Shown piece by piece: positions 3 to 23,090 of a stretch of 64,000 bases of DNA. The DNA is from an uncultured Gemmatimonadales bacterium (lineage in GTDB: Bacteria > Gemmatimonadota > Gemmatimonadetes > Gemmatimonadales > GWC2-71-9). The notes below the pieces were generated by a model. That model made no database searches and had not been told where the DNA came from. It worked only from the letters and a program-made list of their open reading frames with translations. The translations under genes were made by a program, and so were the position numbers. The stretch is from NCBI GenBank assembly GCA_963773095.1, contig CAVYZY010000008.1:266589-330588 (forward strand), read 5' to 3'. Position 1 is the stretch's first letter, and every line of letters begins with the position of its first letter.

Positions 3-1838
3 CAGCTGCTGCTGGCGTGGGAGCGTGACCCGGAGGACCAGGCGCCACTCGACGGCCTCTTCCGCGCAGTTCACTCCCTGAAGGGGATGGCGGCCACGAT
101 GGGCTTTGCCCCGCTGGCCGAACTGGCGCACCGGGCCGAGAACCTGCTCGATGCGGTGCGGGGCGGGCGACTCGCGGTGAAGCCCGAGCATTTCGAGCTG
201 CTGTTCCGCTCGGTGGACGAACTCGAGGATGGCGTTGCACGGGCCACGACGGGGAAGGGCCTGCGCGCCGAGGCAGCCTCGCTGGTGAAGGCGCTGGACG
301 CGGCGGTGAAAAAGGCGGGTAAGGCGGGTGAGACTGACAAGGCGGGGAAGGCGGGGAGGACGGGGAGGGTGGGTGACACCGCCGCTGCAAAGGCGGAGAA
401 GCCCGGCGCGAAGGATGATCGGCCGTCGCTGGACGTGAAGGTTACCGTCCGGTCCGACGCACTGCTTCGCGGGGCGAGGGCGCTGCTGGCGCTGAGGAAG
501 GCGGAAGGACTCGGTGTGGTGTCCCGGGTGACGCCGCAGATGAGCGAGTTCGAGCGCGAGGACTTCGACGGGAAGCTCGCCTTCCGCATCCGCACGGGAG
601 CGGCGCCGAGCGAAGTCGATGCGGTGATCCGGTCGGCGGGCGACATCGCCGGGGTGGCGATCGACCTGGCCTCCGACGAAACGACGGTCGATGCGACCGC
701 GATGCGGCAGATCCGGATCGACCTGGCCCGGCTCGATGTGCTGATGAAGCTGGCGGGCGAACTGGTGGTGGCGCGCAACCGGCTGGTGGAGCTGGCCCGG
801 GCGTCCACCGATCCCGAGCTGGGCCAGGTCGGCGAGCGGATCTCGCGGCTGGTGGGCGCGGTGCAGTCGGAAGTGCTGGAGGCGCGGCTCACGCCGGTGC
901 GCGAGGTGTTCGACCGCTTTCCCCGCGTGGTGCGCGACCTGGCCCGGGACCTGGGCCGGCAGGTGCGGCTCGAGGTGGAGGGCGGCGACATCGAGCTGGA
1001 CCGCGCGGTGCTCGACGAGGTGGCCGACCCGCTGGTGCACCTGGTGCGGAACGCGATCGACCACGGCATCGAGGCGCCGCGCGAACGGGTGAAGGCAGGG
1101 AAGGCGGCGGAGGGACGGCTCCGGCTGTCGGCGTCGCGGGAGCGGAACAGCGTGGCGATCCGCGTGGCCGATGACGGCCGCGGCATCGACCGCTCGAAGA
1201 TCCTGGCGAAGGCGAAGGCCGATGGGCTGGTGGACGCCGCGGCCGAGACGCTGGCCGACGACCAGCTGCTGCGGATCCTTTCCCGCTCCGGCTTCAGCAC
1301 GGCGGCGGTGGTGAGCGGGGTGTCGGGCCGCGGGGTCGGGGTGGACGTGGTGATGACGCGGATCCGGCAGCTGGGCGGCGCGGTGGAGCTGGTCACCGAG
1401 GCGGGGCAGGGCACCGCGTTCGTGCTGCGGGTGCCGCTCACGCTGGCGATCGTGCGATCGCTGCTGGTGCAGGTGGGGGCCGAGCGATACGTCGTGCCGC
1501 TCAACTACGTGAGCGAGACGATCGAGTTCTCGGCGACACCGATCACCGCGCTGGGCGATCGCGAGGCGCTGGTGATCCGGGAGCAGCCGGTGCCGACGGT
1601 GCACCTGCACCGGCTGCTCAGCATCGAGGGCGCGGCCACCACAGGACGGCGGCCGGTCCTGGTGGTCCAGGTGGGGGAGCGCCGGAGCGCACTGGTGGTG
1701 GACGCGCTGCTGGGGCAGCAGGAAATCGTAGTGGAGCCGTTCGATGCGCCACGCGGGATGCCCGGCTGGTTCAGCGGGGCCACGATCCTCGCGGATGGCG
1801 CGCCGGCGCTGATCCTGGACGCGGCGGCGCTCGTCTGA
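3..1838 (+). CDS. cheA: Chemotaxis histidine kinase CheA (5' end cut by window edge)
   Basis: Frame is open from nt 3. Translation upstream of the ORF-track ATG (87) reads ...LDGLFRAVHSLKGMAATMGF, the HPt phospho-His motif. Later come the P3 dimerisation helix IRIDLARLDVLMKL, N-box HLVRNAIDHGIE, G1 DDGRGID, G2 GRGVGVD and a C-terminal CheW-like P5 domain. No receiver domain. Confidence 0.93.
   Translation, partial: QLLLAWERDPEDQAPLDGLFRAVHSLKGMAATMGFAPLAELAHRAENLLDAVRGGRLAVKPEHFELLFRSVDELEDGVARATTGKGLRAEAASLVKALDAAVKKAGKAGETDKAGKAGRTGRVGDTAAAKAEKPGAKDDRPSLDVKVTVRSDALLRGARALLALRKAEGLGVVSRVTPQMSEFEREDFDGKLAFRIRTGAAPSEVDAVIRSAGDIAGVAIDLASDETTVDATAMRQIRIDLARLDVLMKLAGELVVARNRLVELARASTDPELGQVGERISRLVGAVQSEVLEARLTPVREVFDRFPRVVRDLARDLGRQVRLEVEGGDIELDRAVLDEVADPLVHLVRNAIDHGIEAPRERVKAGKAAEGRLRLSASRERNSVAIRVADDGRGIDRSKILAKAKADGLVDAAAETLADDQLLRILSRSGFSTAAVVSGVSGRGVGVDVVMTRIRQLGGAVELVTEAGQGTAFVLRVPLTLAIVRSLLVQVGAERYVVPLNYVSETIEFSATPITALGDREALVIREQPVPTVHLHRLLSIEGAATTGRRPVLVVQVGERRSALVVDALLGQQEIVVEPFDAPRGMPGWFSGATILADGAPALILDAAALV
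315..377 (+). repeat. In-frame 9-nt tandem array, 7 units (GCGGGTAAG GCGGGTGAG ACTGACAAG GCGGGGAAG GCGGGGAGG ACGGGGAGG GTGGGTGAC) in the cheA P1-P2 linker
   Basis: Read directly; encodes AGK AGE TDK AGK AGR TGR VGD. Confidence 0.85.
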
Positions 1839-1863
1839 CTGGGTACGGGTTCGGGAGAGCACC

Positions 1864-2484
1864 ATGGACGACGTGCGGACACTGAAGGCGCACCAGCTCG
1901 ACGCGCTGCGCGAGGTCGCCAATATCGGCGCCGGCCACGCGGCGACCGCGCTTTCCCAGATGACCAACCGCACCATCATGATCGCGGTGCCCGAGGTCAA
2001 CGTGCGCCCGCTCGAGGACGTAGCCGAGCTTTTCGGCTCCGCCGATGCGGTCATCTCCGCCGTGCTCATGCACATGATGGGCGACCTGACCGGCCGCACC
2101 ATGATCCTCTTCCCCAACGAATCGGCCCGGAATCTCTGCGACATCCTGATGCGCCGTGCGCCAGGCACGACGCAGGAGTTCGGGCCGATGGAGCAGTCGG
2201 GGCTGAAGGAGGTCGGCAACATCCTCGTGAGTGCGTACCTCACGGCGCTGAGCGATTTCATGGGGATGATGCTCGTGCCGTCGGTGCCCAGCCTCGTGAT
2301 CGACCAGGCGGGGGCGATCCTCACCACTACCTACCTCAATTTCGGCCACGACCGCGATTACGTCTTCTGCGTCGAGACGGCATTCCAGGTCGCTGGCGCG
2401 TCCGAGCAGCTTCACGGGCATTTCCTGCTCCTGCCCGACCTGCCCTCGCTGCGCGCCATCTTCGACGCCATCCGCATCTCCTGA
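1864..2484 (+). CDS. cheC: CheY-P phosphatase CheC
   Basis: Both CheC active-site motifs D/S-x3-E-x2-N-x22-P can be counted exactly (DALREVAN+22+P and SGLKEVGN+22+P). EVANIGAGHAATALS signature. Confidence 0.88.
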   Translation: MDDVRTLKAHQLDALREVANIGAGHAATALSQMTNRTIMIAVPEVNVRPLEDVAELFGSADAVISAVLMHMMGDLTGRTMILFPNESARNLCDILMRRAPGTTQEFGPMEQSGLKEVGNILVSAYLTALSDFMGMMLVPSVPSLVIDQAGAILTTTYLNFGHDRDYVFCVETAFQVAGASEQLHGHFLLLPDLPSLRAIFDAIRIS

Positions 2485-2488
2485 CCCG

Positions 2489-5200
2489 ATGCCGGGTCCT
2501 GCGCCCTCCGATCGCGACCTTGCCATCCTCCGGTCGTTCGCGAGTCGCATTGACCCGTCGGACGCCGGCGCGCACAACAACCTCGGGGTCCTCTACTACC
2601 AGAAGGGCATGGTCGGCGAGGCGGTCGCCGCCTTCTCCCGCGCGCTCGAGATCGACTCGCGCATGCAGGTGGCCCAGGACAACCTGGAGCTTGCCTACCG
2701 GGAGAGCGGCTTCTACGACGGCCGGGTGGCCGAGCTGCAGGAACGCCTGCGCCGCATGCCCGATGATCGCGAGGCACGCTGGGAGCTGGGCCGGGCCTAC
2801 GCGTCGCTGAGCCGGCACGACCTGGCGGCGCAGGCCTTCGAGGAACTGCTGGTCCGCTCCCCTTCCGACGTTCCCGCCCTCATTCACCTCGGCCTGGCCG
2901 AGAAGGCACGCGGTCGCATCGAGGCGGCCGGCGGGTGCTTCGCGCTCGCGGCCGAGCTCGATCCGGGCAGCGCGGTCGCGCGATTCTACCAGGGCGAGAC
3001 GCTCTACAACCGCGGGCTCAACGACGCGGCGCTCGAGGCGCTCGAGGCCGCCATCGCGCACAACCCCGACTACGCCGAAGCCCACTACCTGCTCGCGTTC
3101 GTCTATGGCGACATGGGGCTGCACGAGCGCGCGCTCGAGGCCACCAAGCGGGCGATCGCGCTCAACCCCATGCTGTCGCGGGCGCAGGCGAATTTGTCGC
3201 TTGAGCGGCTGGTTCCTAAAGGCGAAGAGGCGGGGAGGGCGGGGAAGGCCGGGAGGGCGGGGGGCGCGGGCAACGATGCTGCAGGGACGCCGATGGAGCG
3301 CGATCCGCTGGCGCACTACCAGCTCGGGCTCGCCTTCCGGCAGAAGCGCTACTTCGCCGAGGCGCTGCGCGAGTACCGGATGGCGCTGGACGCGGGCGAG
3401 GACCGCTCGCTGGTGCTGCAGGCGATGGCCGAGGTGCACCTGCTGCGGCGGGACCACTCGACGGCGCTCGAGCTGTACGACGAACTGCTGCGGCAGAACC
3501 CCAGGGTGCCGAAGCTCTGGAACGAGCGCGGCGTGTGCCTGCACCAGGCGGGGCGCCGCGACGAGGCGGCGGTCGCCTACGAGCACGCGATCGCCGCCGA
3601 CCGGACCTACGCGCTGGCGTGGAACAACCTCGGCGTGCTGCGGGCGGGCGCGGCGGGCACGGACGCCGCGATGTCCGCCTTCCGCTCCGCGCTCGAGCGG
3701 CAACCCGGCCTCCACGCCGCGCGGCTCAACCTGGCCCTGCTGCTGATGCAGCGGCGCCAGCCGCAGGCGGCGCTCGAGGCGTACCGCGAGGTGCTCTCGC
3801 GCGACCACGCGAACGCGGTGGCGTGGAACGGGGTCGGCCTCGTGCTGATGGAGCTCAAGCGCTACACCGACGCGCGGAACGCCTTCGGCCGCGCCGTGGA
3901 GCACGACCCGGCGCTCGCCGCCGCGCACTACAACCTGAGCTTCACGCTGGGGCAGCTGGGCGACTTCGAGGGGGCGCTGCGCGAGACCAAGCGCGCGCTG
4001 GAGCTCGAGTCGTACTACGTGCCGCAGAAGTTCGCGCTCACGATCGACCTGCAGTACGAGGACCCCACGATCGCGATCGCGCCCGAAGTCGCGACCGAGG
4101 TGGGGCTCGAGTCGCTGGGCGGCGAGTTCGCGTTCGATCCCGGCGCGCTCGACGACCTGTTCGCGGAGCTGGCCCCCCCCGAAGCGCCGGTGGCAGCGGC
4201 GCGGGTCGAGGATCCGCTCACGCTGGCGCGCGACTACCTGAGCAAGGGACTGCTCGAACTGGCGACGGCCGAGGTGACCCGCGCGCAGGGACGCGGGGCG
4301 GGACGGGCCGAGGCGCAGACGCTGCTGGGCGAGATCTACGCGCGGCGCGGGCTGCACGGCGAGGCCCTGGAGCGGTTCCACACTGCGCGCGAGTCGAACC
4401 CCGGCGACCGGAGTGCCGCCCTGGGCGAGCTCCGCGCGCTGGTGGCGATGGAGCGCGCGGCCGAGGGCGGGATCCTCGCCGAGCAGCTGCTCGAGGCGTT
4501 CCCGCGCGACGTGGAAGTGCTGAGCGCCGTGGCGCGGGTGCGGCTCGCGATGGGCGATGCGACCCACGCGCTCACCGCGGTGCAGCTGGCGCAGACCCTC
4601 GCGCCGGGACGCTCCGACCTGCTGCACCTGCAGGCGCGGGTGGCGGTGCGGCTGGACGACCGGGCCGCGGCGATCGAGGCGTGCAAGCGCGCACTCGAAC
4701 TGGACGACTCGCTGGTGCAGGTGTGGTACGAACTCGGCCGGCTGGAAGAGGGACGCGAGGGCTGGGCGGCGGCGCAGGATGCGTACGTGCGGGCGCTCGA
4801 CATCTTGCCCACCTATCTCGAGGCCGGGCTGGCGCTCGGGGACCTGCTGCGGCGACGCATGCAGCATCGCGCGGCGCTCGACGTGCTGGTGGAACTCCTC
4901 ACCACCGACCCGTACGCGGTCGAGGCCCTGGTGCTGCTGGGAAAGGTGCTGTTCGAGCAGGGCCGCATCGACGAGGCGCTGGAAGGCTTCGGCCGCGCGC
5001 TGCGCTTCAATCCCGAGCACGCGGCGGCGCTCTTCCATTCGGGCGACGTGCTGGCGCGGAAGCGCCGCTTCGGGGACGCCGTGGAGGCGTGGGACCGGGT
5101 GTCGCAGATCGATCCCTCCGGGCCGTACGCCGCACCGGCGCGGAGCCGGGCGCGCTCGGCCCGGGATCTCCAGCACATCTTCGCCGCACAGCCGGGCTGA
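2489..5200 (+). CDS. Large TPR-repeat protein (903 aa)
   Basis: Repeated 34-aa TPR-like units throughout (NLGVLYYQKGMVGEAVAAFSRALEID, AHYLLAFVYGDMGLHERALEATKRAIALNP etc.). Starts 4 nt after the cheC stop. Carries an in-frame nonamer array at 3230-3274. Confidence 0.85.
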   Translation: MPGPAPSDRDLAILRSFASRIDPSDAGAHNNLGVLYYQKGMVGEAVAAFSRALEIDSRMQVAQDNLELAYRESGFYDGRVAELQERLRRMPDDREARWELGRAYASLSRHDLAAQAFEELLVRSPSDVPALIHLGLAEKARGRIEAAGGCFALAAELDPGSAVARFYQGETLYNRGLNDAALEALEAAIAHNPDYAEAHYLLAFVYGDMGLHERALEATKRAIALNPMLSRAQANLSLERLVPKGEEAGRAGKAGRAGGAGNDAAGTPMERDPLAHYQLGLAFRQKRYFAEALREYRMALDAGEDRSLVLQAMAEVHLLRRDHSTALELYDELLRQNPRVPKLWNERGVCLHQAGRRDEAAVAYEHAIAADRTYALAWNNLGVLRAGAAGTDAAMSAFRSALERQPGLHAARLNLALLLMQRRQPQAALEAYREVLSRDHANAVAWNGVGLVLMELKRYTDARNAFGRAVEHDPALAAAHYNLSFTLGQLGDFEGALRETKRALELESYYVPQKFALTIDLQYEDPTIAIAPEVATEVGLESLGGEFAFDPGALDDLFAELAPPEAPVAAARVEDPLTLARDYLSKGLLELATAEVTRAQGRGAGRAEAQTLLGEIYARRGLHGEALERFHTARESNPGDRSAALGELRALVAMERAAEGGILAEQLLEAFPRDVEVLSAVARVRLAMGDATHALTAVQLAQTLAPGRSDLLHLQARVAVRLDDRAAAIEACKRALELDDSLVQVWYELGRLEEGREGWAAAQDAYVRALDILPTYLEAGLALGDLLRRRMQHRAALDVLVELLTTDPYAVEALVLLGKVLFEQGRIDEALEGFGRALRFNPEHAAALFHSGDVLARKRRFGDAVEAWDRVSQIDPSGPYAAPARSRARSARDLQHIFAAQPG
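3230..3274 (+). repeat. In-frame 9-nt tandem array, 5 units (GCGGGGAGG GCGGGGAAG GCCGGGAGG GCGGGGGGC GCGGGCAAC) in the TPR gene
   Basis: Read directly; encodes AGR AGK AGR AGG AGN. Shares an identical 21-mer with 41447-41467. Confidence 0.85.
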
Positions 5201-5202
5201 TC

Positions 5203-6348
5203 ATGGCTATCGAGGGACCGCTCAAGGAACTGCACATCCACGATGTGTTCCAGCTGCTGGACCTCGGCCGGAAGACGGGCGTGCTGTGCGTCACTTCCGA
5301 GCTGCGGCAGAACTCGGGGATGGTCTACTTCGAGCGCGGGGCGGTGGTGGCGGCCGAGATCCGGAGCAACCCGCATCCGCTGGGCACGCTGCTGCTGCGC
5401 GCCGGCAAGATCGCGGAAGCCGACCTGGCGCGAGCGCGGGCGCTGCAGGGGGCGGGCGACGGCCGGCGGCTGGGCGACATCCTGGTGGACATGGGTGCGA
5501 TGAACCGGCGCGAGCTCGAGCGGCTGGTACGGCAGCAGGTGCAGGAAGTCATCTTCGAGCTGATGAACTGGTCGGAGGGATACTTCTCGTTCGAGGAGAC
5601 CACGGGTCCTCGGACGAGCGCCGAGGCGAGCGTGCGCATCCCGACCGAGTCACTGCTGATGGAGGCAGCGCGACGGATCGACGAGTGGTCGCGCATCGAG
5701 GCGAAGGTGCCGCACCTGGGCGTGGTGCCGCGCTTCGCCGATGCGGACAGCCAGCACGGCATGCTCGACCTGACGCCGTTCGAGTGGGAAGTGATCGCGA
5801 CAGTGGACGGCACGCGCGACCTGCGCGCGATTGCGGAAGCGCTGGGACGCGCGGAGTTCGAGATCGCGCGCACCATCTTCGGCCTGACGAGCACCGGCGT
5901 GGTGGTGCTGGACGACCCGACGCAGGTCTCATCGGGGCCCGAGACGCCGGACGTGATGCAGCTCGTCGCGCGCGCGGAGGAACAGCTCGCCTCGGGCGAC
6001 GTGGATTCGGCCCGCCTCATCGCCACCGAGGCGGCGGCCCACTTCCCGGACCAGGCAGGGGCGCACGCGGTGCTGGGGCGCGTGCTGCTCGCGGGCGGGC
6101 ACCATGCCGAGGCGGAGGAGGCGTTCTTCGAGGCACTCCGGCTCGAGCCGGGTTTCGCGTCGGCGCGACGGCTGCTGGGCACGTCCCAGGCGGCGAGCGG
6201 CCGCTTCGACGAGGCGATCGCCTCGTGGCAGCGCTGGCGGCAGCTGGCGGAACGGTCGCCCGAAGAGGTGAAGCTGCAGGAGGGAGTGGACCGGCTGCAG
6301 GCGGCCGCGCGGTTGCTGAGCGACGCGATCAAGGGGTGGTATGACTGA
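5203..6348 (+). CDS. PATAN/DUF4388 domain protein with helical insert and C-terminal TPR
   Basis: MAIEGPLKELHIHDVFQLLDLGRKTGVLCVTSE...MVYFERGAVVAAE matches the DUF4388/PATAN N-terminal pattern. It is followed by GspE-N-like LG..L...G.I helices and a C-terminal TPR (HAVLGRVLLAGGHHAEAEEAFFEALRLEP). ATG at 5203 is in frame with track ORF 3535-6348, whose upstream part is a shadow of the TPR gene. Confidence 0.8.
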   Translation: MAIEGPLKELHIHDVFQLLDLGRKTGVLCVTSELRQNSGMVYFERGAVVAAEIRSNPHPLGTLLLRAGKIAEADLARARALQGAGDGRRLGDILVDMGAMNRRELERLVRQQVQEVIFELMNWSEGYFSFEETTGPRTSAEASVRIPTESLLMEAARRIDEWSRIEAKVPHLGVVPRFADADSQHGMLDLTPFEWEVIATVDGTRDLRAIAEALGRAEFEIARTIFGLTSTGVVVLDDPTQVSSGPETPDVMQLVARAEEQLASGDVDSARLIATEAAAHFPDQAGAHAVLGRVLLAGGHHAEAEEAFFEALRLEPGFASARRLLGTSQAASGRFDEAIASWQRWRQLAERSPEEVKLQEGVDRLQAAARLLSDAIKGWYD

Positions 6349-7156
6349 CCCGATCCGCGAACTCACGGCGCAGCTGGCCTCCGATCCGCAGAGCCTCGTG
6401 TTCCTCGAGCTGGGCGAGGCGCTGCGGAACCGCGGGCAGCCAGCGGCCGCGTACAAGGTGGCGCGCATGGGCGTCAACCGGTATCCGGAGCTGGCGGCAT
6501 CACACGACCTGCTGGCGCGCGTGCTCGCCGACCAGGGTGACCGTCACGCGGCGGCCGAGGCGTGGCGGCGCGTGCTGGAGCTGTCGCCGGGACACCTCGG
6601 GGCCAACAAAGGTCTCGCGTTCCTGGCGTTCCGGGCGGGGGATCCCGAGGGCGCGCTCCCGTTTCTCGAGTCGGCGCTCGGTGCCGCGCCCGACGACGAG
6701 GGGCTCGCGATCGCGGTGCGGCGGGTGCGCACGGCGCTCGATGGCGCGGCAGCGCGCGCGGCGACCGCCGCCGCGAGGAGCGCCCCGAGCGCGCTCCGCG
6801 GCGCCGAGGGGTTCGAGCCGTTCGAAGATGCGCAGGGCGTGGTGCTGCTGGACACGCAGGGGCTGCGGCTCGCGGGCACGCTGGAGGCGCCCGACGGCCG
6901 CGACGTGAGCGACGCCGTGGCGGCGCACCTGCAGGGCGTGTCGCGTGAAGCGTCGCGCGCGGCCCGGCTGCTCGACCTCGGCGCGTGGGAGAGCGTGACG
7001 GCGGAGTCGCCGGATGGCCACCTCCTGGTGCTGCCGCCGACGCAGTCCACCGTGCTGCTCCTGCTGCGGGACGCGCGGGTGCCGGTGGGGCGGCTCGGGC
7101 TCATCGCGGAGCAGGCGGCGCGCGCGGCGCGCAGCTGGCTGGAACGGCTGGCATGA
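6341..7156 (+). CDS. TPR - Roadblock/LC7 fusion protein
   Basis: N-terminal TPR-like helices (LVFLELGEALRNRGQPAAAYKVARMGVNRYP). The C-terminal ~110 aa show a Roadblock pattern (GVVLLDTQGLRLAG...DAVAAHLQGV...ESVTAESPDGHLLVL...LLLLRDARVPVGRL). 8-nt overlap with the upstream gene. Confidence 0.7.
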   Translation: MTDPIRELTAQLASDPQSLVFLELGEALRNRGQPAAAYKVARMGVNRYPELAASHDLLARVLADQGDRHAAAEAWRRVLELSPGHLGANKGLAFLAFRAGDPEGALPFLESALGAAPDDEGLAIAVRRVRTALDGAAARAATAAARSAPSALRGAEGFEPFEDAQGVVLLDTQGLRLAGTLEAPDGRDVSDAVAAHLQGVSREASRAARLLDLGAWESVTAESPDGHLLVLPPTQSTVLLLLRDARVPVGRLGLIAEQAARAARSWLERLA

Positions 7157-7503
7157 GGAACCTGGGCGAGGCGCTCGAGCGGGTCACGCGGGTGGCGGGC
7201 ATCCGGGGTGCGATGCTGGTGTCCGAGTCGGACGGCCTCGTGGTGGCGGAGGCGCTGGCCGAGGGACTCGACGGCAACGCGGTCGCGGCCCTGGCGGCGA
7301 GCCTGACGCTGCGGCTCCGGCGCACGGCGACGAGCGCCGGGCTCGCAGTGCCGCAGGTGGTGCAACTCCGCGCCGAGCGAGGCACGGTGCTCAGCGTTCC
7401 CGCCGGCGACGACCTGCTGCTGGTGGCGGTGGCCGAGCGCGACGCGAACCTGGGCCTCGCGCGGCTCGAGCTCAGGCAGGCGGCGGCGCAGTTCGGATCA
7501 TGA
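7153..7503 (+). CDS. Roadblock/LC7 domain protein (116 aa)
   Basis: LERVTRVAGIRGAMLVSESDGLVVAE...AVAALAASL...QVVQLRAERGTVLSVPAGDDLLLVAVAERDANLGL is a typical Roadblock/MglB-fold pattern. ATGA overlap at both ends. Confidence 0.78.
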   Translation: MRNLGEALERVTRVAGIRGAMLVSESDGLVVAEALAEGLDGNAVAALAASLTLRLRRTATSAGLAVPQVVQLRAERGTVLSVPAGDDLLLVAVAERDANLGLARLELRQAAAQFGS

Positions 7504-7961: not shown

Positions 7962-7965
7962 CGGG

Positions 7966-8568: not shown

Positions 8569-10810
8569 GCACGCTGCAGGGTGGTCACCGGTTCGATGCG
8601 CTGGTGGTGGGCACGGCCAACCGCACCGCGGTGACGGCCGGCCGCGCGGTGGCGAGCGCGCCGGGGTCGGCCTACAACCCGCTGCTCATCTACGCGCGCC
8701 CTGGCATGGGCAAGACGCACCTGCTGGGCGCGATCGCGCACCAGGTGCTGGTGGTGAACCCGTCGGCACGCATCGAGTTCCTGACGCTGGACGAGTTCAT
8801 CGAGGGATTCCACGCGGCGCTTGCCGTGGGCCGGAGCGACGAGTATCGCGCCCGGTTCGGGGCCGCCGACCTGCTGCTGCTGGACGACATCCAGTTCCTG
8901 AGCCGGCAGCGGGAGATGCAGGCGGAACTGCTGCGGGTGATCGACGTGATGCTCGGGGGGGAAAGCAGGTGGTGCTCACCAGCGACCGCGCGCCGGCCGA
9001 GATCGAGTCGCTCGACGACCGCCTGCTCACGCGCTTCGCCGGCGGGCTGGTGCTCGACATCGCGCAGCCCGACTACGAGACCCAGGTCGCGATCCTGTAC
9101 CGAAAGGCCGAGGAGCGCGGCGCGAGCTTCCCGGAGGGCGTGCTGGAGGCGGTGGCCTCGCTCGGCATCGAAAGCGTGCGCGAACTGGTGGGCGCGCTCA
9201 ACCGGCTGGTGGCGTTCCAGGCGGTGAGCGAGGCGCCGCTCGACGCGGCGCAAGCGCGGCTGCTGATCGGCGGGCCGCAGCCGGCGGTGGCGGCCGACGA
9301 GCTCGTGCTGGACCAGGCCGAGTCGCTCGAGTTCGCAGTGGCGGGCCATGCGGAGGTGGCCCACGCAGGCGGCGAATCCCGCCGGGTGCTGGCCGACGCG
9401 CTTCCCGGCGTGATGCTCGGGCAGTCGGACATGCTGGGCGGCCCCGCCGACGAGCTGCCGTCGCGCGACGGCGCCGGGCACGACGGCAGCCCGCAGGACT
9501 TCGGGATGCCGGGTGAGGCGCACGAGTACAGCGACGCGCACGAGTTCACGGCACCGCGCGACGCGGGCGCGCCGCCGGACAAGCTGGGGGAGAGCCTGGC
9601 GGACAAGCCGGCGCTGCAGGCCGATCGCGACGAGTTCGGCGACTTCCTGTCCGACCTCGCGGCGACGCTCGCGCGGCAGGTGGATCCGTGGCGGGCGCGG
9701 GTAGGCGAGGCCATCCTGCGCTGGGAGGGCGAGGGCTTCCGCACGTATCGCCTGGAGCGGCTGCTGGAGGATCCCGAGCCGCCCGATCCCGAGTCGGTGA
9801 TGATCCAGTACGAGGCCGACGCGGAGCAGCTGCTGGAGCTGCGCATGGAAGCGGAGTCGCTCGCCCCCGAGATGGCGGGTGCGGCGCAGCTCACCGATCC
9901 CGGCAACATGGCCGCGGCGGAAGCCTACATGCAGCGCGTGCGCGAGGGTGCCGTCCCGCCGCCGGGGCCGGTCGAGCACTGGCTGCTCGACGACCTGATC
10001 GAGGGGCCGGGGAACCGCATGGCGGTGCGCGCGGCGCTCGCGGCGATTGCCGAGCCGGGGCAGAAGTACAACCCGATCGTGGTGGTGGGCGGTTCGGGCG
10101 TGGGCAAGACCCACCTGCTGCACGGCATCGGGAACGCGCTGGCGCTGGCGAGAGACGGGCATGTGGCCTGCCTCAGCGCGCACGACTTCACCCAGGAACT
10201 GATCGACGCGATCGATCGCGACGGCGTTACGGCATGGCGCAACCGCTACCGGCGCTGCACGGCGCTGCTGCTCGACGACGTGCACCTGATCGCCGGGAAG
10301 GAGCGCACGCAGGAGGAGCTGTTCCTCCTGTTCAACCTCTTCCTCGAGTCGAACCGGCAGCTTGGGTTTGCCTCGGCGGTGCCACTGGCGGAGCTGTCGG
10401 GCGTGGAGCCGCGGCTGCTGACGCGGCTCGAGGGCGGGCTGGTGGTGGAATTGCCGCCACCCGACCGGGAGCTGCGCCAGCAACTGGTGGAACGGATCCT
10501 CACGGCGCGGGGCCAGGAGGCGGACGCGGAACTGGTGACCTACATCGCGTCGCGCCCGGCGGAGTCGGCGCGCGCGGTGCAGGGCTACGTGCAGCGGGTG
10601 CTCCACTCCGCCGACTCGCAGCAGACCAGGCCCAGCGCGGCCCTCGCGCGCGAAGTACTGGAGGGCGGCGCGCGTGTCGTGCGGAAGAGCACCGGCGCCG
10701 GTCGCTCGATCAGCGTGTCAGCAGCGTCGTCGGGCGGCGTGAAGAGCCGGGAGAAGACGGTGTGGTCGTGGCCCACGCTGTCGGACCGCGTCATCGAGGA
10801 GTGGCGATAG
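8565..10810 (+). CDS. Tandem DnaA/Hda-like AAA+ ATPase without DnaA domain IV; apparent -1 frameshift at G7 run 8955-8961
   Basis: Module 1: YNPLLIYARPGMGKTHLL (Walker A), LLLLDDIQFL (Walker B), then across the frameshift GKQVVLTSDRAPAEIESLDDRLLTRFAGGLVLDI (sensor 1/box VII), SVRELVGALNRL (box VIII). Acidic ~270-aa linker. Module 2: YNPIVVVGGSGVGKTHLL, ALLLDDVHLI, RLLTRLEGGLVVEL. No HTH domain IV. Track ORFs 8565-9227 and 8969-10810 are the two frames. Total length 2246 nt fits one -1 shift. Confidence 0.8.
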
Positions 10811-12429
10811 TGGCGATCAAGGGATCCCTCAAGGAAGCGAGCCTTCCCGACGTCATCCAGCTGCTCTACCTGGGGCGGCGGACCGGGTGCCTGGCGATCA
10901 CCGACCGCCAGAACCTGGGCTACATCTACTTCGATGACGGGAAGATCGCGTACGCCTCGATCGTGAACCGGCGCGACCGGCTGGGCGACATGCTGGTGCG
11001 CAACGGCCGGATCAACGCGGACCAGCTGCGCCGGGCGGTGGACCAGCAGGCGAGCGACCGCGAGGTGCGCCTGGGCGAGATCCTGCTGGGTCAGGGCGCG
11101 CTCACGCGGCAGGAACTCGACGACTACATGCGCCTCCAGATCGAGGAGGCGGTCTACTACCTGTTCACGTGGACCACGGGCGCCTTCAACTTCGAGGCGG
11201 GTGTCCGTCCCGATCCGCGCGACTTCCAGGTGCAGATCAACCCCGAGTGGCTGCTGCTCGAGGGCGCTCGCCGCGTGGACGAGTGGAGCCTGATCGAGAA
11301 GAAGATCCCCAGTTTCGACCTCATCTTCACGGCCGACCAGGCGCGGGTGGAGGCGGCGGGAGCGCCGCTGTCGGAGCAGGAGCAGTTGATCCTGCCGCTG
11401 CTCGATGGCCGGCGCGACGTGCAGCAGGTCGTGGACGAATCGGGCCTGGTGGAGTTCCTGGTGGGCCAGGCGCTCTACGGCCTGATCACGGCGGGCTACG
11501 CGCATCGTACCGGCTCCTCGGCGACGACCATCTCCCCGCGGGTCAACGACGCGCGAGTGGAGGAGCACCGCAACCTGGGCGTCGCGTTCTACCGCACCGG
11601 GATGCTGGACGAAGCGCTGCGGGAGTTCCGCCGGGTGGCGGACCTGCGCCCCACCGAGGGGAGCGCGCCGTTCTACCTCGGGCTCATTGCGCTGCGGCAG
11701 GGCAAGTGGGAGGAAGGGGTGGAGGCGTTCAAGCTCGCCGTGGAGAAGGGCGGGCCGCGTCCGGCCGCGCTGCACAACCTCGGGTTCGCCCTGGAGCAGC
11801 TCGGCCGGCTCGAGGAGTCGGAGGCGGCGTATGGCGACGCCACGAGCCGCGCGCGGGACGACCACCGCATCATGCTTGGCTGGGCGATCGCGGCGCTGCA
11901 GCGCGGCGAGCACCAGGTGGCGGTGAGCCGGCTCGAGCGCACCCGCGAACTACTGGGCGACAAGACGCCGCCGGCGGCGTGGCACTGGGCGATGGCGCTG
12001 GCGCAGGCGGCGAGCGACGACTTCGAGGCGGCGCTGGAGACGGCGCGCGCCGGTGTCACCGCGTACCCGGAGCAGGCGGTGCTGGGCAACAACCTGGCGG
12101 TGCTGCTGGAGCTCCGGGGCGACACGGCCGGGGCGGAGCAGATGCTGAAGCAGGCGTTCGCGGCCGATCCGGCGCTGCCGCAGGTGTCGAAGAACACCGG
12201 CGACCTGCTCTATCGCGCGGGACGGTACGACGAGGCCTTCGAGGCGTACGAGCGCGCGGCGCGCGTGGCGCCGGCGCTGGGCGATGACCTCTACTTCAAG
12301 CTGGGCAACATCGCATACAAGCGGCGGGACACGGCGCGGGCGCGGGCGAGCTGGGAGCATGCGACGGAACTCAACCCGAGCCACCAGCTGGCACGGGCCA
12401 ACCTCGACATGCTGGCGGCCGAGGCATGA
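10810..12429 (+). CDS. PATAN/DUF4388 domain protein with helical insert and C-terminal TPR (second copy)
   Basis: VAIKGSLKEASLPDVIQLLYLGRRTGCLAITD...GYIYFDDGKIAYAS parallels the N-terminus of the 5203 gene. RLGDMLVRNGRINADQL / RLGEILLGQGALTRQEL helices; TPRs from NLGVAFYRTGMLDEALREFRRVADLRP onward. GTG 10810 (or GTG 10801) is in frame with track ORF 9688-12429. Confidence 0.8.
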   Translation: MAIKGSLKEASLPDVIQLLYLGRRTGCLAITDRQNLGYIYFDDGKIAYASIVNRRDRLGDMLVRNGRINADQLRRAVDQQASDREVRLGEILLGQGALTRQELDDYMRLQIEEAVYYLFTWTTGAFNFEAGVRPDPRDFQVQINPEWLLLEGARRVDEWSLIEKKIPSFDLIFTADQARVEAAGAPLSEQEQLILPLLDGRRDVQQVVDESGLVEFLVGQALYGLITAGYAHRTGSSATTISPRVNDARVEEHRNLGVAFYRTGMLDEALREFRRVADLRPTEGSAPFYLGLIALRQGKWEEGVEAFKLAVEKGGPRPAALHNLGFALEQLGRLEESEAAYGDATSRARDDHRIMLGWAIAALQRGEHQVAVSRLERTRELLGDKTPPAAWHWAMALAQAASDDFEAALETARAGVTAYPEQAVLGNNLAVLLELRGDTAGAEQMLKQAFAADPALPQVSKNTGDLLYRAGRYDEAFEAYERAARVAPALGDDLYFKLGNIAYKRRDTARARASWEHATELNPSHQLARANLDMLAAEA

Positions 12430-13244
12430 AGGCGCCCGAGGATGCGGAGTTCGACGCACTGGCCAGGGACCTGACGGTGCGCACTGGCGTGTCGCTGGCG
12501 TCCTACAAGCCGAAGTGCCTGCGCCGCCGGATCGCGGTGCGAATGCGCGCCTGCGGGGTGCACACGTACGACGAGTATCGCGGCGTACTGGCGAACACCC
12601 CCGAAGAAGTGGAGCGGCTGCACGACGCCCTCACGATCAACGTCACCCGCTTCTTCCGGAACCCGGAAACGTGGGAAGCGGTGAAGTCGAACGTGCTGCC
12701 GGGCCTGCTGGCGAAGAACGCGCCGGTGCGCGCGTGGAGCGCGGGCTGTTCCTCGGGGGAGGAGGCGCACACGCTGGCCATGCTCTGGGCCGACGCGGCG
12801 GAACGGGCCGGTCACCCGGAGTGGCTGGACCGCTTCAGCGTGGAAGCGACGGACATCGACCGCGAGTGCATGCTGCGGGCCCGGGCGGGACAGTACCGCA
12901 CCGAAGCGTTCGTGGAGACGCCGTCGCGGCTGGTGGAGCGATGGACGCGCCCCGAGGGCGAGGGCCGCATCGTCGACGCGCGGCTGCGCGCGCGGATCGC
13001 CGTGTCGACGCTCGACCTGACGCGCGACGCGCTCCCGGTGCGGCGGTTCGACCTCGTGGTGTGCCGCAACGTGGTGATCTACTTCGACCGGGTGACGCAG
13101 GAGCGACTGTTCGTCGGGTTTCACGACGCACTGGTGCCAGGCGGCTTCCTGATCCTCGGCAAGGTTGAAACCCTGGTCGGCCCGGCGCGCGACCTGCTGG
13201 CGCTCGTGGATGTCCGCGAGCGCATCTATCGGAGGCCGGTGTGA
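12426..13244 (+). CDS. cheR: Chemotaxis protein methyltransferase CheR
   Basis: LRRRIAVRMRACGVHTYDEYRGVL, TINVTRFFRNPETWE, VRAWSAGCSSGEEAHTLAM (SAM-binding) are typical CheR blocks. ATGA overlap upstream. Confidence 0.9.
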   Translation: MKAPEDAEFDALARDLTVRTGVSLASYKPKCLRRRIAVRMRACGVHTYDEYRGVLANTPEEVERLHDALTINVTRFFRNPETWEAVKSNVLPGLLAKNAPVRAWSAGCSSGEEAHTLAMLWADAAERAGHPEWLDRFSVEATDIDRECMLRARAGQYRTEAFVETPSRLVERWTRPEGEGRIVDARLRARIAVSTLDLTRDALPVRRFDLVVCRNVVIYFDRVTQERLFVGFHDALVPGGFLILGKVETLVGPARDLLALVDVRERIYRRPV

Positions 13245-13729
13245 GCGCACGGGAGATAGTCGTGCGGGTGTCGGACATGGCCGTGGCGACGGCGGACGAG
13301 GTGCTCGTCACCGTGGGGCTCGGCAGCTGCGTCGCGATCATGCTCTACGATCCGGAGGCGAGGATCGGCGGGCTCGCGCACATCCTGCTGCCCTCGAAGG
13401 CGCTCACCCGGCAGGCGGAGAACCCGGCCAAGTTCCCGCAATCGGCGGTGCCGGCGCTGCTGGAGCGGATGGTGGCGGTGGGCGCGAGCCCGCGGCGGAT
13501 CACGGCGCGGCTGGCGGGCGGGGCGAGCATGTTCTCGCAGCTGGCGCCGCCGGGCACGATCCAGATGGGCGAGCGCAACCTCGTGGCCACGCGCCAGGCG
13601 CTGAGCGCGCAGAACGTGCCGCTCACCGGCGAGGCGGTAGGGGGCGACTTCGGCCGCACGGTGCGGCTGCACTGCAAGGACGGCCGGATCGACGTGTCAT
13701 CGGTCGCGCACGGTGTCCAGCACCTCTGA
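13241..13729 (+). CDS. cheD: Chemoreceptor glutamine deamidase CheD
   Basis: [30 protein letters not shown] is the CheD signature with catalytic Cys/His. GTGA overlap with cheR. Confidence 0.9.
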
Positions 13730-14786
13730 GCGACGGTCGGTCCTGATCGCCGACGACAGCCCGTTCTTCCGCCGCCTGCTTTCCGACATCCTGGAGCGCA
13801 GCGGGGAGTTCACCGTGGTGGGCACGGCACGCAACGGCATGGACGCGGTGCAGAAGGTGCACCGGCTGCAGCCCGACCTGGTGCTGATGGACCTGGAGAT
13901 GCCCGAGCTCGATGGGCTGGGCGCCATCGGGTACATCATGTCGGAGGCACCGCGGCCGATCGTGGTGGTGTCGAGCTACGCGGGGCCGGGCACGTCGGCG
14001 GCGATCCGCTCGCTGGAGCTGGGCGCGGTGGAAATCGTGGCGAAGGAGTCGGGCCGCGATGCCGCCGACCTGCAGCGGTTCGGCGAGCGGCTGCTGGAAA
14101 CGCTGCGGCTCTCCGCCGGTGCGGAACTGTTCCGGCTGCCGATCCTGGCGCGGCCGGCCCAGGGGATGCCGCCGGCGGCACTGTTCTCGCTGCCGGGGCG
14201 CGCGCGCGGCTGCGTCGCGATCGCGGCATCGACCGGCGGCCCGCGCGCGCTCGCGGAGGTGGTGCCGAAGCTGTCACCCGGACTCGGGGCGGGCGTCGTG
14301 ATCGTGCAGCACATGCCGCCCGGGTTCACCCGGAGCCTGGCCGAGCGGCTGGCGGGCCAGAGCCGGTTGCGGGTCGTGGAAGCGGAGCACGGGACACCGT
14401 TCCTCGAGGACACGGCGTACGTGGCGCCGGGAGACTGGCACATGCGCGTGGCGGCGGGACCGGAAGGGGTGCACCTCCTGCTCGATCGCGAACCCACGAT
14501 GTGGGGTGTGCGACCGGCGGCCGACCCGCTCTTCCGCTCGGTGGCCGAGGTGTTCGGCGCGCAGGCAGTGGGGGTGGTGCTCACCGGGCTCGGGCGCGAC
14601 GGGGCGGACGGACTGCGGCGCATCCACGAGGCGGGTGGCATCGGCATCGCGCAGGATCACGCCAGCGCCACGATCGACGGCATGCCCGCGGCGGCGCGGG
14701 CGGCGGGCGGTGCCGATCACGTGCTGTCGGTGACGCAGGTGGCGGGGCAGGTGGATGCGGAGATCCGCCGCATGCGCCTGCTGTGA
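13713..14786 (+). CDS. cheB: Chemotaxis response regulator / protein-glutamate methylesterase CheB
   Basis: Receiver domain [14 protein letters not shown]...[14 protein letters not shown] plus methylesterase domain ([29 protein letters not shown]). Confidence 0.92.
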
Positions 14787-15205
14787 GCGCCACGAGCGGG
14801 GCGTTCCTGCTGGTGCGGGCGGGCGGCCGAAGGGTCGGCCTCGCGGTGGAGGCGGTGATCGAGGTGCGCGAGCCCGACGAGCTGGGCACGATCCCGTCGC
14901 ACGAGCCGGCGCTGCGCGGCGTCACTGCGCTCCGGGGCCAGCTGATGCCGGTGCTCAACCTGGCGGCGCTGCTGGGCGGCGAGGCGGGGCCGGGACTGGT
15001 GGTGGTGGTCACCGATCTCGGCGGGCGCCGCGTGGGGCTCGAGGTGGATGACGCGGACATCGTCGTGGGCTCGGGTGTGTCACTGCTGCGCGCCGACGAA
15101 ACGCTCCCGTGGGCCCGCGCCATCGCGGTACTGCCCGACCAGGTATACGTGCCGCTGCTCGACCTGGGTGCCCTGTCAGCGCGGCTTACGGAGGTCAGCA
15201 CATGA
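14783..15205 (+). CDS. cheW: CheW-like coupling protein (short, divergent)
   Basis: [23 protein letters not shown]...[29 protein letters not shown] is the CheW pattern. GTG 14783 overlaps the cheB stop (GTGA). In frame with track ORF 14501-15205. Confidence 0.78.
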
Positions 15206-15669
15206 CACATGGAGACGACGTCCAGCTCGTCACCTTCCGGTGCGGTGGACACGACTTCGCGTTCGACATCCTGCAGTTGCAGCGGATCCTCCGCTACGAG
15301 GTGCCGTCGCCGCTGCCGGACGCGCCCGACTTCCTGGAGGGCGTGCTCTCCTACGAGGGCAGTGCCGTGCCGGTGGTGGACCTGCGCAAGCGCCTGGGGC
15401 TGCCGGCCACGGTGACGGAGGAGACGCGGGTGATGCTGCTCGAACTCGACGGGCACCGCGTGGGCGTCGTGGTGGATGCGGCGCGCGAACTGGTGCGGGT
15501 GGACAGCACTACGATCAGCGCGCCGCCGCCGATGGTCCGCGGGCTGGCGGCGCGGTACATCGCCGGCATCCTGGCGCGGCCCGAGCGCACCCTCGTCATC
15601 CTGAACGCCCAGCGGCTCCTGGCCGACGACGAACGGAACGTCCTGCACCACCTGGAGATCCCGACGTGA
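15202..15669 (+). CDS. cheW: CheW coupling protein
   Basis: LVTFRCGGHDFAFDILQLQRILRYE...LPDAPDFLEGVLSYEGSAVPVVDLRKRLGL. ATGA overlap with the previous gene. In frame with track ORF 15109-15669. Confidence 0.88.
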   Translation: MTHGDDVQLVTFRCGGHDFAFDILQLQRILRYEVPSPLPDAPDFLEGVLSYEGSAVPVVDLRKRLGLPATVTEETRVMLLELDGHRVGVVVDAARELVRVDSTTISAPPPMVRGLAARYIAGILARPERTLVILNAQRLLADDERNVLHHLEIPT

Positions 15670-16559
15670 GTGAACCGACCGGTTCCGGCCCCGATCCGTG
15701 GGTGACGGGCCTCCGCGCCACGCACGCCGACATCGCGCGGCGCCTGGATGCGGCCACCACCGCCATCGACCGGGACGTCCTGAAGCGGGAGATCATCTCG
15801 TTCTTCAAGCGGGTGGACGGGGCACTGACCGACCTGACGCGGCTCAAGGAAGAGATCCGCGTCCTGGTGAACCAGTACAAGCAGGTGGCCTCGACGGCCG
15901 ACTCGGCGCAGGCCCCGCAGTTCACCGGCGCCTTCCCGGTGGTGCAGGCCGATCACCTCGGCGCGTCGACGTATATCGAAAAGGGCTGGAGCCTGATCTC
16001 GCTCGGGGATCACGCCGGTGCGATCCAGGCGCTGCAGCGCGCGCTCCAACTGGCACCGGGCGACACCCAGGCGCAGTCGCTGCTGGGGTGGGCACAGATG
16101 CTCCACGAGGACTACGACGACGCGCTGAGCACCTTCTCGCGGGTGCTGATGAAGGAGCCGGCCAACTCGCTCGCCCGGATCAATGTGGGCTACATTTGCC
16201 TCAAGAAGGGGATCTTCGGCGAGGCGATCGAGCACCTGTCCAAGGCCATCCGGCTGGACAACGACCGCAAGGCCACGCTGTACGCGCACTTCTACCTCGG
16301 CCTCGTGTACCTCGAGCGGGAAATGTTCGAGGACGCGCAGTCCTTTTTCCGGAAGACGCTGCAGCTCGGACCCAACCTCATTGAGGCCTACTTCGAGCTG
16401 GGCCGCGCCCAATGGTTCGCCGGTGAACGGGAGCCGGCGGTGGCGACCTGGACGGAGGGGCAGAAGGCCAACCGGTTCAACCCGTGGTCAAAACGGTGCG
16501 GCGAGATGCTGGAGCGTGCGGCAGCGGGCGAGGAGATTCCGCGGGCGCTGGTTTCGTAG
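15666..16559 (+). CDS. TPR-repeat protein (last gene of the che/mglA operon)
   Basis: GTG 15666 overlaps the cheW stop (GTGA). N-terminal coiled region, then TPRs (GWSLISLGDHAGAIQALQRALQLAP, AHFYLGLVYLEREMFEDAQSFFRKTLQLGP). Followed by an inverted nonamer-array hairpin. Confidence 0.8.
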   Translation: MSEPTGSGPDPWVTGLRATHADIARRLDAATTAIDRDVLKREIISFFKRVDGALTDLTRLKEEIRVLVNQYKQVASTADSAQAPQFTGAFPVVQADHLGASTYIEKGWSLISLGDHAGAIQALQRALQLAPGDTQAQSLLGWAQMLHEDYDDALSTFSRVLMKEPANSLARINVGYICLKKGIFGEAIEHLSKAIRLDNDRKATLYAHFYLGLVYLEREMFEDAQSFFRKTLQLGPNLIEAYFELGRAQWFAGEREPAVATWTEGQKANRFNPWSKRCGEMLERAAAGEEIPRALVS

Positions 16560-23082: not shown

Positions 23083-23090
23083 CCGTGCGC

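Follow-up and report, generated by a model that had tools for sequence, protein, structure and literature searches.

Can a complete chemosensory (Che) pathway and a small-GTPase polarity module work as one unit, and if so, what might such a unit control? In Myxococcus, the link from phosphorelay to GTPase is still debated, its components are scattered, and the connections through FrzX, FrzZ and RomR have been mapped in part. The question is posed afresh by a gene cluster in a 64,000-nt stretch of contig CAVYZY010000008.1 from an uncultured Gemmatimonadales bacterium (this whole stretch is called the window below). At positions 3-16559, a module of MglA, Roadblock, PATAN and TPR proteins together with a DnaA-like ATPase is nested within a complete Che pathway, as a preliminary description of this DNA had claimed, joining two layers that are separate in Myxococcus, where frz and mglBA are distinct loci (PMC4316618). 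We find that the nested order is not a matter of chance, since it occurs in dozens of independent genomes, and we consider it very likely that the whole cluster is one functional unit. As to its role, we lean toward a reading in which an F1-like Che pathway would drive an MglA/MglB polarity switch, with PATAN-TPR proteins as the linking adaptors and type IV pili as the output.

Because the G+C content of the window is high (about 71%), raw lists of open reading frames (ORFs) are full of spurious frames; genes were called by a plot of third-position GC (GC3) by frame, a scan for starts beside the preceding stop, and Pfam. This gave 16 genes within 3-16559, all on the plus strand:

<3-1838, plus strand: cheA, with Pfam Hpt, P2, dimerisation, HATPase and CheW domains; 5' end truncated by the window edge
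1864-2484, plus strand: cheC, with two Pfam CheC matches
2489-5200, plus strand: all-TPR protein of 903 aa, with Pfam TPR families over residues 27-879
5203-6348, plus strand: PATAN (DUF4388) and TPR protein of 381 aa, with Pfam DUF4388 at residues 4-163 (E 2e-33)
6341-7156, plus strand: protein of 271 aa with TPRs (Pfam TPR_2) and a C-terminal Roadblock/LC7 domain (Robl_LC7, residues 163-242)
7153-7503, plus strand: stand-alone Roadblock/LC7 protein of 116 aa (Pfam Robl_LC7, E 1e-9; PDB 7f8m, E 3e-9)
7500-7961, plus strand: MglB-like Roadblock protein of 153 aa (PDB M. xanthus MglB 6h5b_B, E 5e-8)
7966-8568, plus strand: MglA of 200 aa (PDB MglA 5ymx, 6h17 and 3t12, at E 1e-65 to 1e-70)
8565-10810, plus strand: DnaA-like ATPase, with two Pfam Bac_DnaA matches; frame broken by a 1-nt deletion
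10810-12429, plus strand: PATAN and TPR protein of 539 aa (Pfam DUF4388, E 8e-37, and TPR)
12426-13244, plus strand: cheR methyltransferase (Pfam CheR, CheR_N)
13241-13729, plus strand: cheD deamidase (Pfam CheD)
13713-14786, plus strand: cheB methylesterase with a receiver domain (Pfam Response_reg, CheB_methylest)
14783-15205, plus strand: cheW, 140 aa (Pfam CheW)
15202-15669, plus strand: cheW, 155 aa (Pfam CheW)
15666-16559, plus strand: TPR protein of 297 aa, the last of the cluster (Pfam TPR)

Of the 15 junctions between these genes, four are gaps (25, 4, 2 and 4 nt) and the other 11 are overlaps, among which eight are of the 4-nt ATGA/GTGA kind. These counts reproduce exactly the figures of the preliminary description, including its maximum gap of 25 nt. 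The flanks form the complete Che core that it had recognised (by Pfam, CheA and CheC on one side; CheR, CheD, CheB and two CheW proteins on the other), and the three Roadblock/LC7 domains that it counted lie in the products of 6341-7156, 7153-7503 and 7500-7961; its four TPR proteins become five TPR-containing proteins, three of which are TPR-only. A placement of the fourth gene at 5199-6344 was discarded, as it had no Pfam match and both third-position GC and the genes called in related contigs pointed to 5203-6348. From the tight packing, we infer one operon read as a single transcript. Overlapping starts are also frequent outside the cluster, however (at lspA/rluD and rluD/cheW upstream, seen in the related contig L002, and at the rsmH-ftsL-ftsI junctions of the downstream division and cell wall, or dcw, cluster), so that tight packing is partly a genome-wide trait and by itself proves no dedicated operon. 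A scan of the window returned no sigma-70-like promoter sites, a scan of this kind being uninformative for operon limits in Gemmatimonadota.

The window cuts the cluster short. The exact CheC sequence matched six metagenomic contigs (L001-L006), one of which, L002, matches the window at 99.97% identity across 12.5 kb with one gap only. In L002, the full cheA encodes 633 aa and is preceded by rluD, then a cheW (145 aa, overlapping rluD by 8 nt), then a single-domain cheY (120 residues), so that what had been described as a 16-gene cluster has 18 genes, in the order cheW-cheY-cheA-cheC-TPR-PATAN/TPR-TPR/Roadblock-Roadblock-MglB-MglA-DnaA-like-PATAN/TPR-cheR-cheD-cheB-cheW-cheW-TPR. The lack of a stand-alone CheY that had been noted is thus true inside the window and false for the cluster, cheY sitting just before nt 1; it is an artefact of the edge, and with it goes the puzzle of an intact CheC without a CheY. 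No gene for a methyl-accepting chemotaxis protein (MCP) was found by Pfam in the window or in the 8 kb upstream. The Gemmatimonadota cluster is without an MCP gene, as the preliminary description said of the 16.5 kb; in Candidatus (Ca.) Edwardsbacteria and two relatives, MCP genes adjoin the cluster or lie near it.

Is the adjacency of che genes and mglA peculiar to this genome? It extends, in fact, across Gemmatimonadota and at least one other named candidate phylum. We scanned one genome per GTDB species with the MglA alignment as query, which gave 80 loci with MglA identities from 86% down to 57%, compared the neighbourhoods within ±10 kb of each locus and scored them by tblastn with all cluster proteins; flanks were counted as adequate when they reached at least 9 kb upstream and at least 8.5 kb downstream of mglA. 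In 25 of the 31 adequately flanked loci, che genes lie on both sides of mglA, and 24 of these 25 also have the DnaA-like gene. One locus (L057) lacks only a match to cheR, and the remaining five of the 31 are che-less loci with a small module (three from Ignavibacteria/-les, one from Zixibacteriota and one other). Every adequately flanked species-representative locus from Gemmatimonadota keeps the cluster order, L057 doing so without the cheR match; the loci span Gemmatimonadales, Gemmatimonadaceae, a Gemmatimonas sp. and, on short contigs, Longimicrobiales. Gemmatimonadales metagenomes are rich in homologues of the DnaA-like protein, and all 18 genes follow in the same order on two Gemmatimonadales contigs, at a protein identity of about 60%.

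The loci outside Gemmatimonadota are more telling. A search with the single-headed DnaA-like protein of L074 and L077, two loci with the same gene order, revealed a well-separated family at 350-800 bits (vs. about 150 bits for true DnaA) with named members from Zixibacteria, Ca. Edwardsbacteria and TA06. In L089 (Ca. Edwardsbacteria, GCA_001777935.1) and L091, the order is (cheW-)cheY-cheA-cheC-TPR(895)-PATAN/TPR-TPR/Roadblock-Roadblock-MglB-MglA-DnaA-like-PATAN/TPR-cheR-cheD-cheB-TPR-cheW, with one or two HAMP-MCP genes coming straight after it; L090, truncated on its 5' side, begins at PATAN/TPR and has an MCP about 3 kb downstream, past four unrelated genes. The GC content of L089, L090 and L091 is 42-59% (42-64% when L077 and L074 are included). 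Across these five loci, CheA is 35-37% and the DnaA-like protein 32-38% identical to those of the window, and the proteins of L089, L090 and L091 are generally 29-47% identical to their window counterparts, CheY (72-73%) and MglA (58-61%) excepted. The junctions in these cross-phylum loci do not overlap, so the order has been kept without translational coupling. A nesting that persists although the sequences have diverged this far, the flanks differ and the junctions do not overlap is strong evidence for one functional unit. A juxtaposition of two unrelated gene sets by rearrangement, maintained by vertical inheritance in a compact genome, would fit the equal synteny of the flanking housekeeping genes in Gemmatimonadota and the frequency of overlapping starts elsewhere in the window and upstream; it is nevertheless highly improbable, given a nested order that survives in at least two named phylum-level lineages and their relatives at GC contents of 42-72% and identities of 30-40% for most proteins.

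Some losses were seen within Gemmatimonadota. A Gemmatimonadaceae-related sublineage (L064, L066, L067, L069 and L070) has no DnaA-like gene, the nesting of MglA within Che genes being otherwise kept; cheD is also missing from L064, L066, L069 and L070, whose contigs reach that far, and L066 and L069 have no match to the two distal cheW genes or to the closing TPR gene.

What kind of Che pathway is this? The cluster provides a CheA with Hpt, dimerisation, kinase and CheW-like domains, CheW, single-domain CheY, CheR, CheB, CheC and CheD. CheA matches the E. coli and T. maritima CheA structures in the PDB at E 1e-87 to 1e-92 and ends with its CheW domain, with no C-terminal receiver by Pfam. Its best NCBIfam match is CheA_Halo, that of CheY is CheY_Halo, and that of CheC is CheC_Thtogales (E 3e-50); a motif regular expression found both D/S-x3-E-x2-N-x22-P phosphatase sites of CheC intact, in agreement with the preliminary description. 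CheY retains the DD, D54, S82 and K104 residues, ends in ...AKDFVVKPFQPSRV and is among the best-conserved genes of the cluster (72-95% identical outside the window's own species group). Over 300 residues, the MCP beside the cluster in L089 can be aligned gap-free with T. maritima TM1143, which we take to be a 44-heptad (44H) receptor. CheC together with CheD is typical of the F1 class, and going by composition, best family matches and general knowledge of the classes, the pathway appears F1-like. A CheA-receiver fusion, an MCP and a dual-receiver gene were looked for with Pfam as Frz-type features, and none of them is present in the Gemmatimonadota cluster. The cluster would work like Frz-Mgl, but is not a Frz orthologue.

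The central module has a recognisable switch. MglA matches M. xanthus MglA at E 1e-70 with 55% identity and carries the intact P-loop (GPGRSGKT), DRTLFFDF, TVPGQ and NKQD motifs, all of which had been read correctly before; the P-loop, the intrinsic R53 of switch I, T78 and Q82 are invariant in the MglA alignment, and by these features the protein is a group-1-type Ras-like GTPase. The MglB-like protein scores E 2e-7 against the NCBIfam MglB model, which is below the model cut-off, and 96% probability against a Roadblock alignment in hhalign; it is presumed to be the GTPase-activating protein (GAP) for MglA.

In both PATAN proteins, a helical insert (aa 59-112 in the 381-aa protein, aa 57-108 in the 539-aa protein) splits the one PATAN domain, which is followed by a small winged-helix-like part and then TPRs; an apparent second PATAN domain in the 539-aa protein was rejected, the two Pfam stretches being halves of one domain around the insert. 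Neither protein has a Response_reg match in Pfam, and neither is of the PatA type. The inserts contain tandem RLGxxLLxxGxIxxxxLxxAxxxQ motifs that are kept in the Gemmatimonadota, Edwardsbacteria-type and Ignavibacteria/Zixibacteria copies and correspond to the MshEN consensus (tandem RLGxx(L/V/I)(L/V/I)xxG(L/V/I/F)(L/V/I)xxxxLxxxLxxQ). Against NCBIfam NF053729, an MshE-related cyclic di-GMP (c-di-GMP) motif with a cut-off of 38 bits, the 539-aa protein scores above (43.8 bits) and the 381-aa protein below (37.5 bits). In an AlphaFold2 (AF2) model of the product of 10810-11559 (mean predicted local distance difference test score, pLDDT, 81), the insert forms four helices that superpose on V. 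cholerae MshE-N with c-di-GMP (5htl) at a root-mean-square deviation (rmsd) of 1.1 A and 36% identity, and also on the GSPII-B domain of T. thermophilus PilF. The insert thus has both the sequence and the fold of an MshEN-type c-di-GMP receptor, and this conservation of motif and fold makes a c-di-GMP input through the inserts plausible. That some PATAN proteins carry a GspE_N annotation has been noted earlier (bioRxiv 10.1101/2021.06.11.447907). In lineage L066, the insert is deleted from the 539-aa protein. When searched with Foldseek, the whole PATAN model gave weak matches (E 0.01-0.07, template modelling, or TM, score about 0.3) to NPRL2/NPRL3 of GATOR1, which are longin and winged-helix GAP subunits for Rag GTPases; kinship of PATAN with Roadblock/longin domains was not adopted, as hhalign gave 0.2% probability for PATAN against Roadblock, and the Foldseek matches are a hint only.

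As for the TPR proteins, the 903-aa protein is kept at the same position in all related loci and is a candidate scaffold or MglA effector. The 297-aa protein is 58-76% identical in nearly all Gemmatimonadota loci (54% in one) and 40-43% identical in relatives outside the phylum.

Which machine might such a switch control? The closest pointer comes from eight che-less loci in Ignavibacteria, Zixibacteria and other metagenome-assembled genomes (MAGs; L075, L076, L078, L079, L080, L082, L083 and L084), in which the order is PATAN-x-TPR-(x)Roadblock-Roadblock-MglA-MglB, followed at once by pilB (T2SSE and MshEN domains) in all eight. Wherever the contig continues, pilT and pilC come after pilB (L080 stops inside pilB), and most of these loci have comEC upstream. 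Their MglA is 58-62% identical to that of the window; it can bear a C-terminal extension (328 aa in L078). Many of the che-embedded and related loci come from MAG series that we take to be of soil or terrestrial origin (SMAG, MFD). In a survey of more than 400 Gemmatimonadota MAGs, flagellar genes were present in only one or two soil genomes, and type IV pilus genes occurred in all environments other than the marine one (PMC10581226). The che-less core beside pilBTC and this survey together favour pili over flagella as the controlled machine. In cyanobacteria, moreover, PATAN-REC regulators of Che-like systems bind the pilus ATPase PilB1 (bioRxiv 10.1101/2021.06.11.447907).

The obvious competitor is that we are looking at the flagellar F1 che operon of the lineage, with phosphorylated CheY (CheY-P) acting on FliM, and that the embedded genes are a co-expressed polar organiser, comparable to ParC/ParP or HubP of polar flagellates, which would position or segregate the chemoreceptor array and flagellum at one pole and would not be the output of the pathway. 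The F1-like composition, a CheY and CheC like those of B. subtilis and T. maritima and the 44H type of the associated MCP would all be expected of such an operon, as would a CheY identity of 72-95% in a protein that has to bind a conserved motor, and Gemmatimonas does have a single polar flagellum (PMC9862903). We nonetheless judge this explanation rather unlikely, in that the cluster is found in many presumed-soil Gemmatimonadales MAGs while flagellar genes are nearly absent from soil Gemmatimonadota (PMC10581226), and the nearest che-less module adjoins pilBTC and not fli genes.

In the pilus reading that we favour, MCPs, which in Gemmatimonadota would be encoded away from the cluster, would control CheA through the CheW proteins; CheA would phosphorylate the single-domain CheY, CheC would dephosphorylate CheY-P, and CheR, CheB and CheD would adapt the receptors. 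CheY-P could then act on the central module, likeliest via the two PATAN-TPR proteins: in the PatA-type regulators of cyanobacteria, PATAN is fused to a receiver, which predicts a contact between CheY-P and PATAN when the two are separate proteins. Either the PATAN proteins or CheY-P itself would change how active the MglB/Roadblock GAP complex is or where it sits, flipping MglA between its GDP and GTP forms. MglA-GTP would then direct the pilus motor and so set or reverse the active pole, the large TPR proteins serving as scaffolds or effectors. The MshEN-like inserts of both PATAN proteins may add a c-di-GMP input, and the DnaA-derived ATPase, a constant partner of mglA, may serve as an ATP-dependent oligomerising scaffold or timer of the module. 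Both the coupling of CheY-P to PATAN or MglB and the pilus output are proposals. There is a precedent in M. xanthus, where Frz acts on MglA/MglB, and MglAB has been proposed as recruited to a chemosensory system (PMC4546325).

Several observations weigh against this reading. There are no pil genes within 10 kb of the che-embedded cluster, and the cluster contains no RomR/RomX-like gene (no receiver-plus-Pro-rich protein). The Che part has the look of an ordinary F1 system of the flagellar or archaellar type, and the C-terminus of CheY closely resembles those of the B. subtilis and T. maritima proteins. The rluD, tRNA and dcw flanks are as syntenic in Gemmatimonadota as the cluster itself, so that synteny within the phylum is weak evidence and the argument rests on the cross-phylum loci. 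Finally, cultured Gemmatimonas is polarly flagellated (PMC9862903), so that an ancestral or parallel target of CheY could be the flagellar switch.

What, then, is a DnaA-like protein doing in such a cluster? As sequenced, its gene in the window appears as two ORFs in different frames, and a reading as two separate genes (8565-9227 and 9224-10810) is ruled out by an indel in a G-run at 8955-8961, which is G7 in the window and G8 in L002, the missing base shifting the frame, and by the intact genes of relatives. The intact gene (L002 16702-18948) encodes 748 aa, and in dozens of relatives a single ORF of 640-750 aa carries both Bac_DnaA heads. The "two-headed DnaA-like AAA+ protein" of the preliminary description is right about the heads, by Pfam and by these relatives; in the window its gene is split. 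The deletion is probably an assembly or sequencing indel; phase variation of the G-run is a further possibility.

The protein consists of a DnaA domain-III head, a disordered linker, a family-specific helical domain, a second, Hda-like head and a conserved C-terminal motif. Head 1 matches DnaA domain III 8bv3 at E 2e-51 and superposes on B. subtilis DnaA domain III with a TM score of 0.93 and an rmsd of 1.6 A (Foldseek) at about 40% identity; its Walker A, Walker B, box VII and sensor II arginines are kept in all lineages of the alignment. Head 2 is most similar to Hda and is a Gemmatimonadales/Gemmatimonadaceae addition, absent from L063, L072, L074 and L077 and with a degenerate Walker A in L068. 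The helical domain is modelled confidently by AF2; among 1.84 billion cluster representatives only 232 have it, in every case behind one AAA+ head. After a disordered tail, the alignment shows a conserved C-terminal motif, REKxVWxWP...DRxIEE(W/L)R, which could be a TPR-docking peptide. By the features that define DnaA and Hda, the protein is neither: TIGR00362 matches twice, at model positions 103-331 only; no DnaA_N (domains I/II) and no domain IV were found by Pfam or NCBIfam; the true DnaAs among the matches of the family search carry PF11638 and PF08299, both absent here; the Hda model TIGR03420 gives 151 bits against a cut-off of 194.8; and family members are 450-750 aa long with extra domains, Hda being one AAA+ module of about 230 aa. 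No clamp-binding motif of the QL[SP]LPL type was noticed at the N-terminus on reading alone, no formal motif search being made. That the protein is an ATP-dependent oligomerising scaffold or timer, with its acidic C-terminus docking a TPR protein, is a guess only.

A different role is suggested by the surroundings of the cluster. In L001-L006, the upstream flank consists of yggS, divIVA, ileS, a dksA-like gene, lspA and rluD (L002 1-7230). Downstream, a Peptidase_MA gene, a tRNA gene, a TPR gene, a second tRNA gene and a hairpin lead to the dcw cluster, the coordinates of these features being:

17809-17883: tRNA-Val(TAC), between the cluster and dcw
19773-19847: tRNA-Asp(GTC), between the cluster and dcw
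19863-19899, plus strand: terminator-like hairpin after tRNA-Asp, the sole strong one on this strand
19911-35232: dcw genes rsmH, ftsL, ftsI, murE, murF, mraY, murD, ftsW, murG, murC, ftsQ, ftsA and ftsZ

A 605-aa TPR ORF called from 17854 must in truth begin past tRNA-Val. Upstream, rluD is present in almost all Gemmatimonadota loci with sufficient reach, and rsmH downstream was confirmed in the small number of loci long enough to contain it; the rluD/dcw arrangement was not found in the Edwardsbacteria-type loci.

With this position between yggS-divIVA-ileS-lspA-rluD and dcw (rsmH to ftsZ), the cluster might be thought to tie the cell cycle or division to environmental sensing. Its output would then be the DnaA/Hda-like ATPase, which would modulate DnaA or replication initiation, and MglA would mark a pole at which the cell buds or divides. 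The identity of about 40% between head 1 and B. subtilis DnaA domain III, the retained ATPase motifs and the likeness of head 2 to Hda would accord with this. The idea is nonetheless improbable: the protein has no DnaA domain I or IV and no Hda-type clamp-binding N-terminus that we noticed, its gene was lost from the five loci of the Gemmatimonadaceae-related sublineage with the rest kept, two tRNA genes and a terminator intervene between the cluster and rsmH, and adjacency to dcw is lost in the Edwardsbacteria-type loci. A functional tie to dcw or DivIVA was likewise set aside, since the adjacency is kept only within Gemmatimonadota and is interrupted by tRNA genes.

How does the cluster compare with known systems? 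Like Frz-Mgl of M. xanthus, it would join a Che-type pathway with a single-domain receiver output to a group-1 MglA and its Roadblock GAP MglB, and Myxococcus also has extra Roadblock proteins (MglC), TPR effectors (SgmX) and type IV pili as an output. In Frz, however, FrzE is a CheA-receiver fusion, FrzCD an in-cluster cytoplasmic receptor and FrzZ a protein of two receivers, none of which occurs in the Gemmatimonadota cluster; the latter has CheC, CheD, three CheW proteins, two PATAN-MshEN-TPR proteins and the DnaA-like ATPase, and no RomR/RomX. The cyanobacterial Tax/Pix/Pil systems also combine a Che-like pathway with a PATAN-containing output (PatA-type, PATAN-REC) and control type IV pilus polarity, but in Gemmatimonadota PATAN is fused to TPRs rather than to a receiver, CheY is separate, and a DnaA-like ATPase and an MglA/MglB switch come in between. 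The F1 systems of B. subtilis and T. maritima have the same Che parts, CheC and CheD included, with a very similar CheY and a 44H-type receptor; their operons are without small GTPase, Roadblock, PATAN, large TPR and DnaA-like genes, and their output is the flagellar switch. Among replication proteins, DnaA and Hda resemble the ATPase in that the structure of head 1 can be laid over B. subtilis DnaA domain III and its ATP-binding and arginine-finger motifs are kept; they differ from it in that it has its own helical domain and C-terminal W-x-W-P...EE(W/L)R motif and is without domains I/II and IV. The actinobacterial conservons CvnA-D likewise join a sensor histidine kinase, a Roadblock protein and an MglA-family GTPase in one operon (PMC4316618), but with a membrane histidine kinase without CheA or adaptation enzymes, a group 2 MglA, and no PATAN, TPR or DnaA-like proteins.

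The published record contains fragments of this arrangement. A survey of prokaryotic small GTPases lists the MglA loci of G. aurantiaca only as "MglB>MglA>" and "PATAN>MglA>-PATAN>", describes group-1 MglA neighbourhoods as variable and "occasionally" near PATAN genes, and notes that in M. xanthus and Bdellovibrio the signalling partners of MglA are encoded away from mglA (PMC4316618). Guzzo et al. proposed the recruitment of MglAB to a chemosensory system, with no fused locus described (PMC4546325). In the literature searched, with the original 2006 PATAN paper outside that search, there was no description of a che/mglA/DnaA-like cluster, in line with the preliminary description, whose author knew of no characterised system with this composition.

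We would tentatively go further and propose a class of chemosensory system that crosses phyla, in which MglA/MglB and two more Roadblock proteins would be the dedicated output of an F1 pathway, with PATAN-MshEN-TPR proteins as c-di-GMP-gated adaptors in place of a fused PatA-type regulator and a DnaA domain-III ATPase exapted from replication initiation into polarity signalling. Such a class would be shared by Gemmatimonadota and Ca. Edwardsbacteria, and probably by TA06 and some Zixibacteria, all of which we take to belong to the Fibrobacteres-Chlorobi-Bacteroidetes (FCB) group. If this is true, these bacteria hold an independent or ancestral answer to the problem that Frz-Mgl solves, with all components in one cluster and a closed list of candidate parts for the coupling (CheY, two PATAN-TPR proteins, three Roadblock proteins, MglA, three TPR-only proteins and the ATPase). 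It would support the recruitment of MglAB to a Che system (PMC4546325) outside Myxococcota, and suggests that non-cyanobacterial PATAN domains could be adaptors that sense c-di-GMP and link CheY to MglA or PilB. It also reveals a small, well-separated family of DnaA-derived ATPases without a DNA-binding domain. Gemmatimonadota are among the most abundant soil phyla, and to our knowledge almost nothing is known of their movement or polarity.

Two further observations concern the rest of the window. In ftsI (21111-23082), the GC3 frame moves from 3 to 1 near 21750 (21700-21800), in a region with no run of G or C of 7 bases or more; this second frame switch, in an essential gene, suggests indel errors in the window rather than true pseudogenes. 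At 40734-43031, and unrelated to the cluster, the window encodes a 765-aa protein with multihaem cytochrome c motifs (Cytochrome_C7, C554, paired CXXCH) and C-terminal TPRs.

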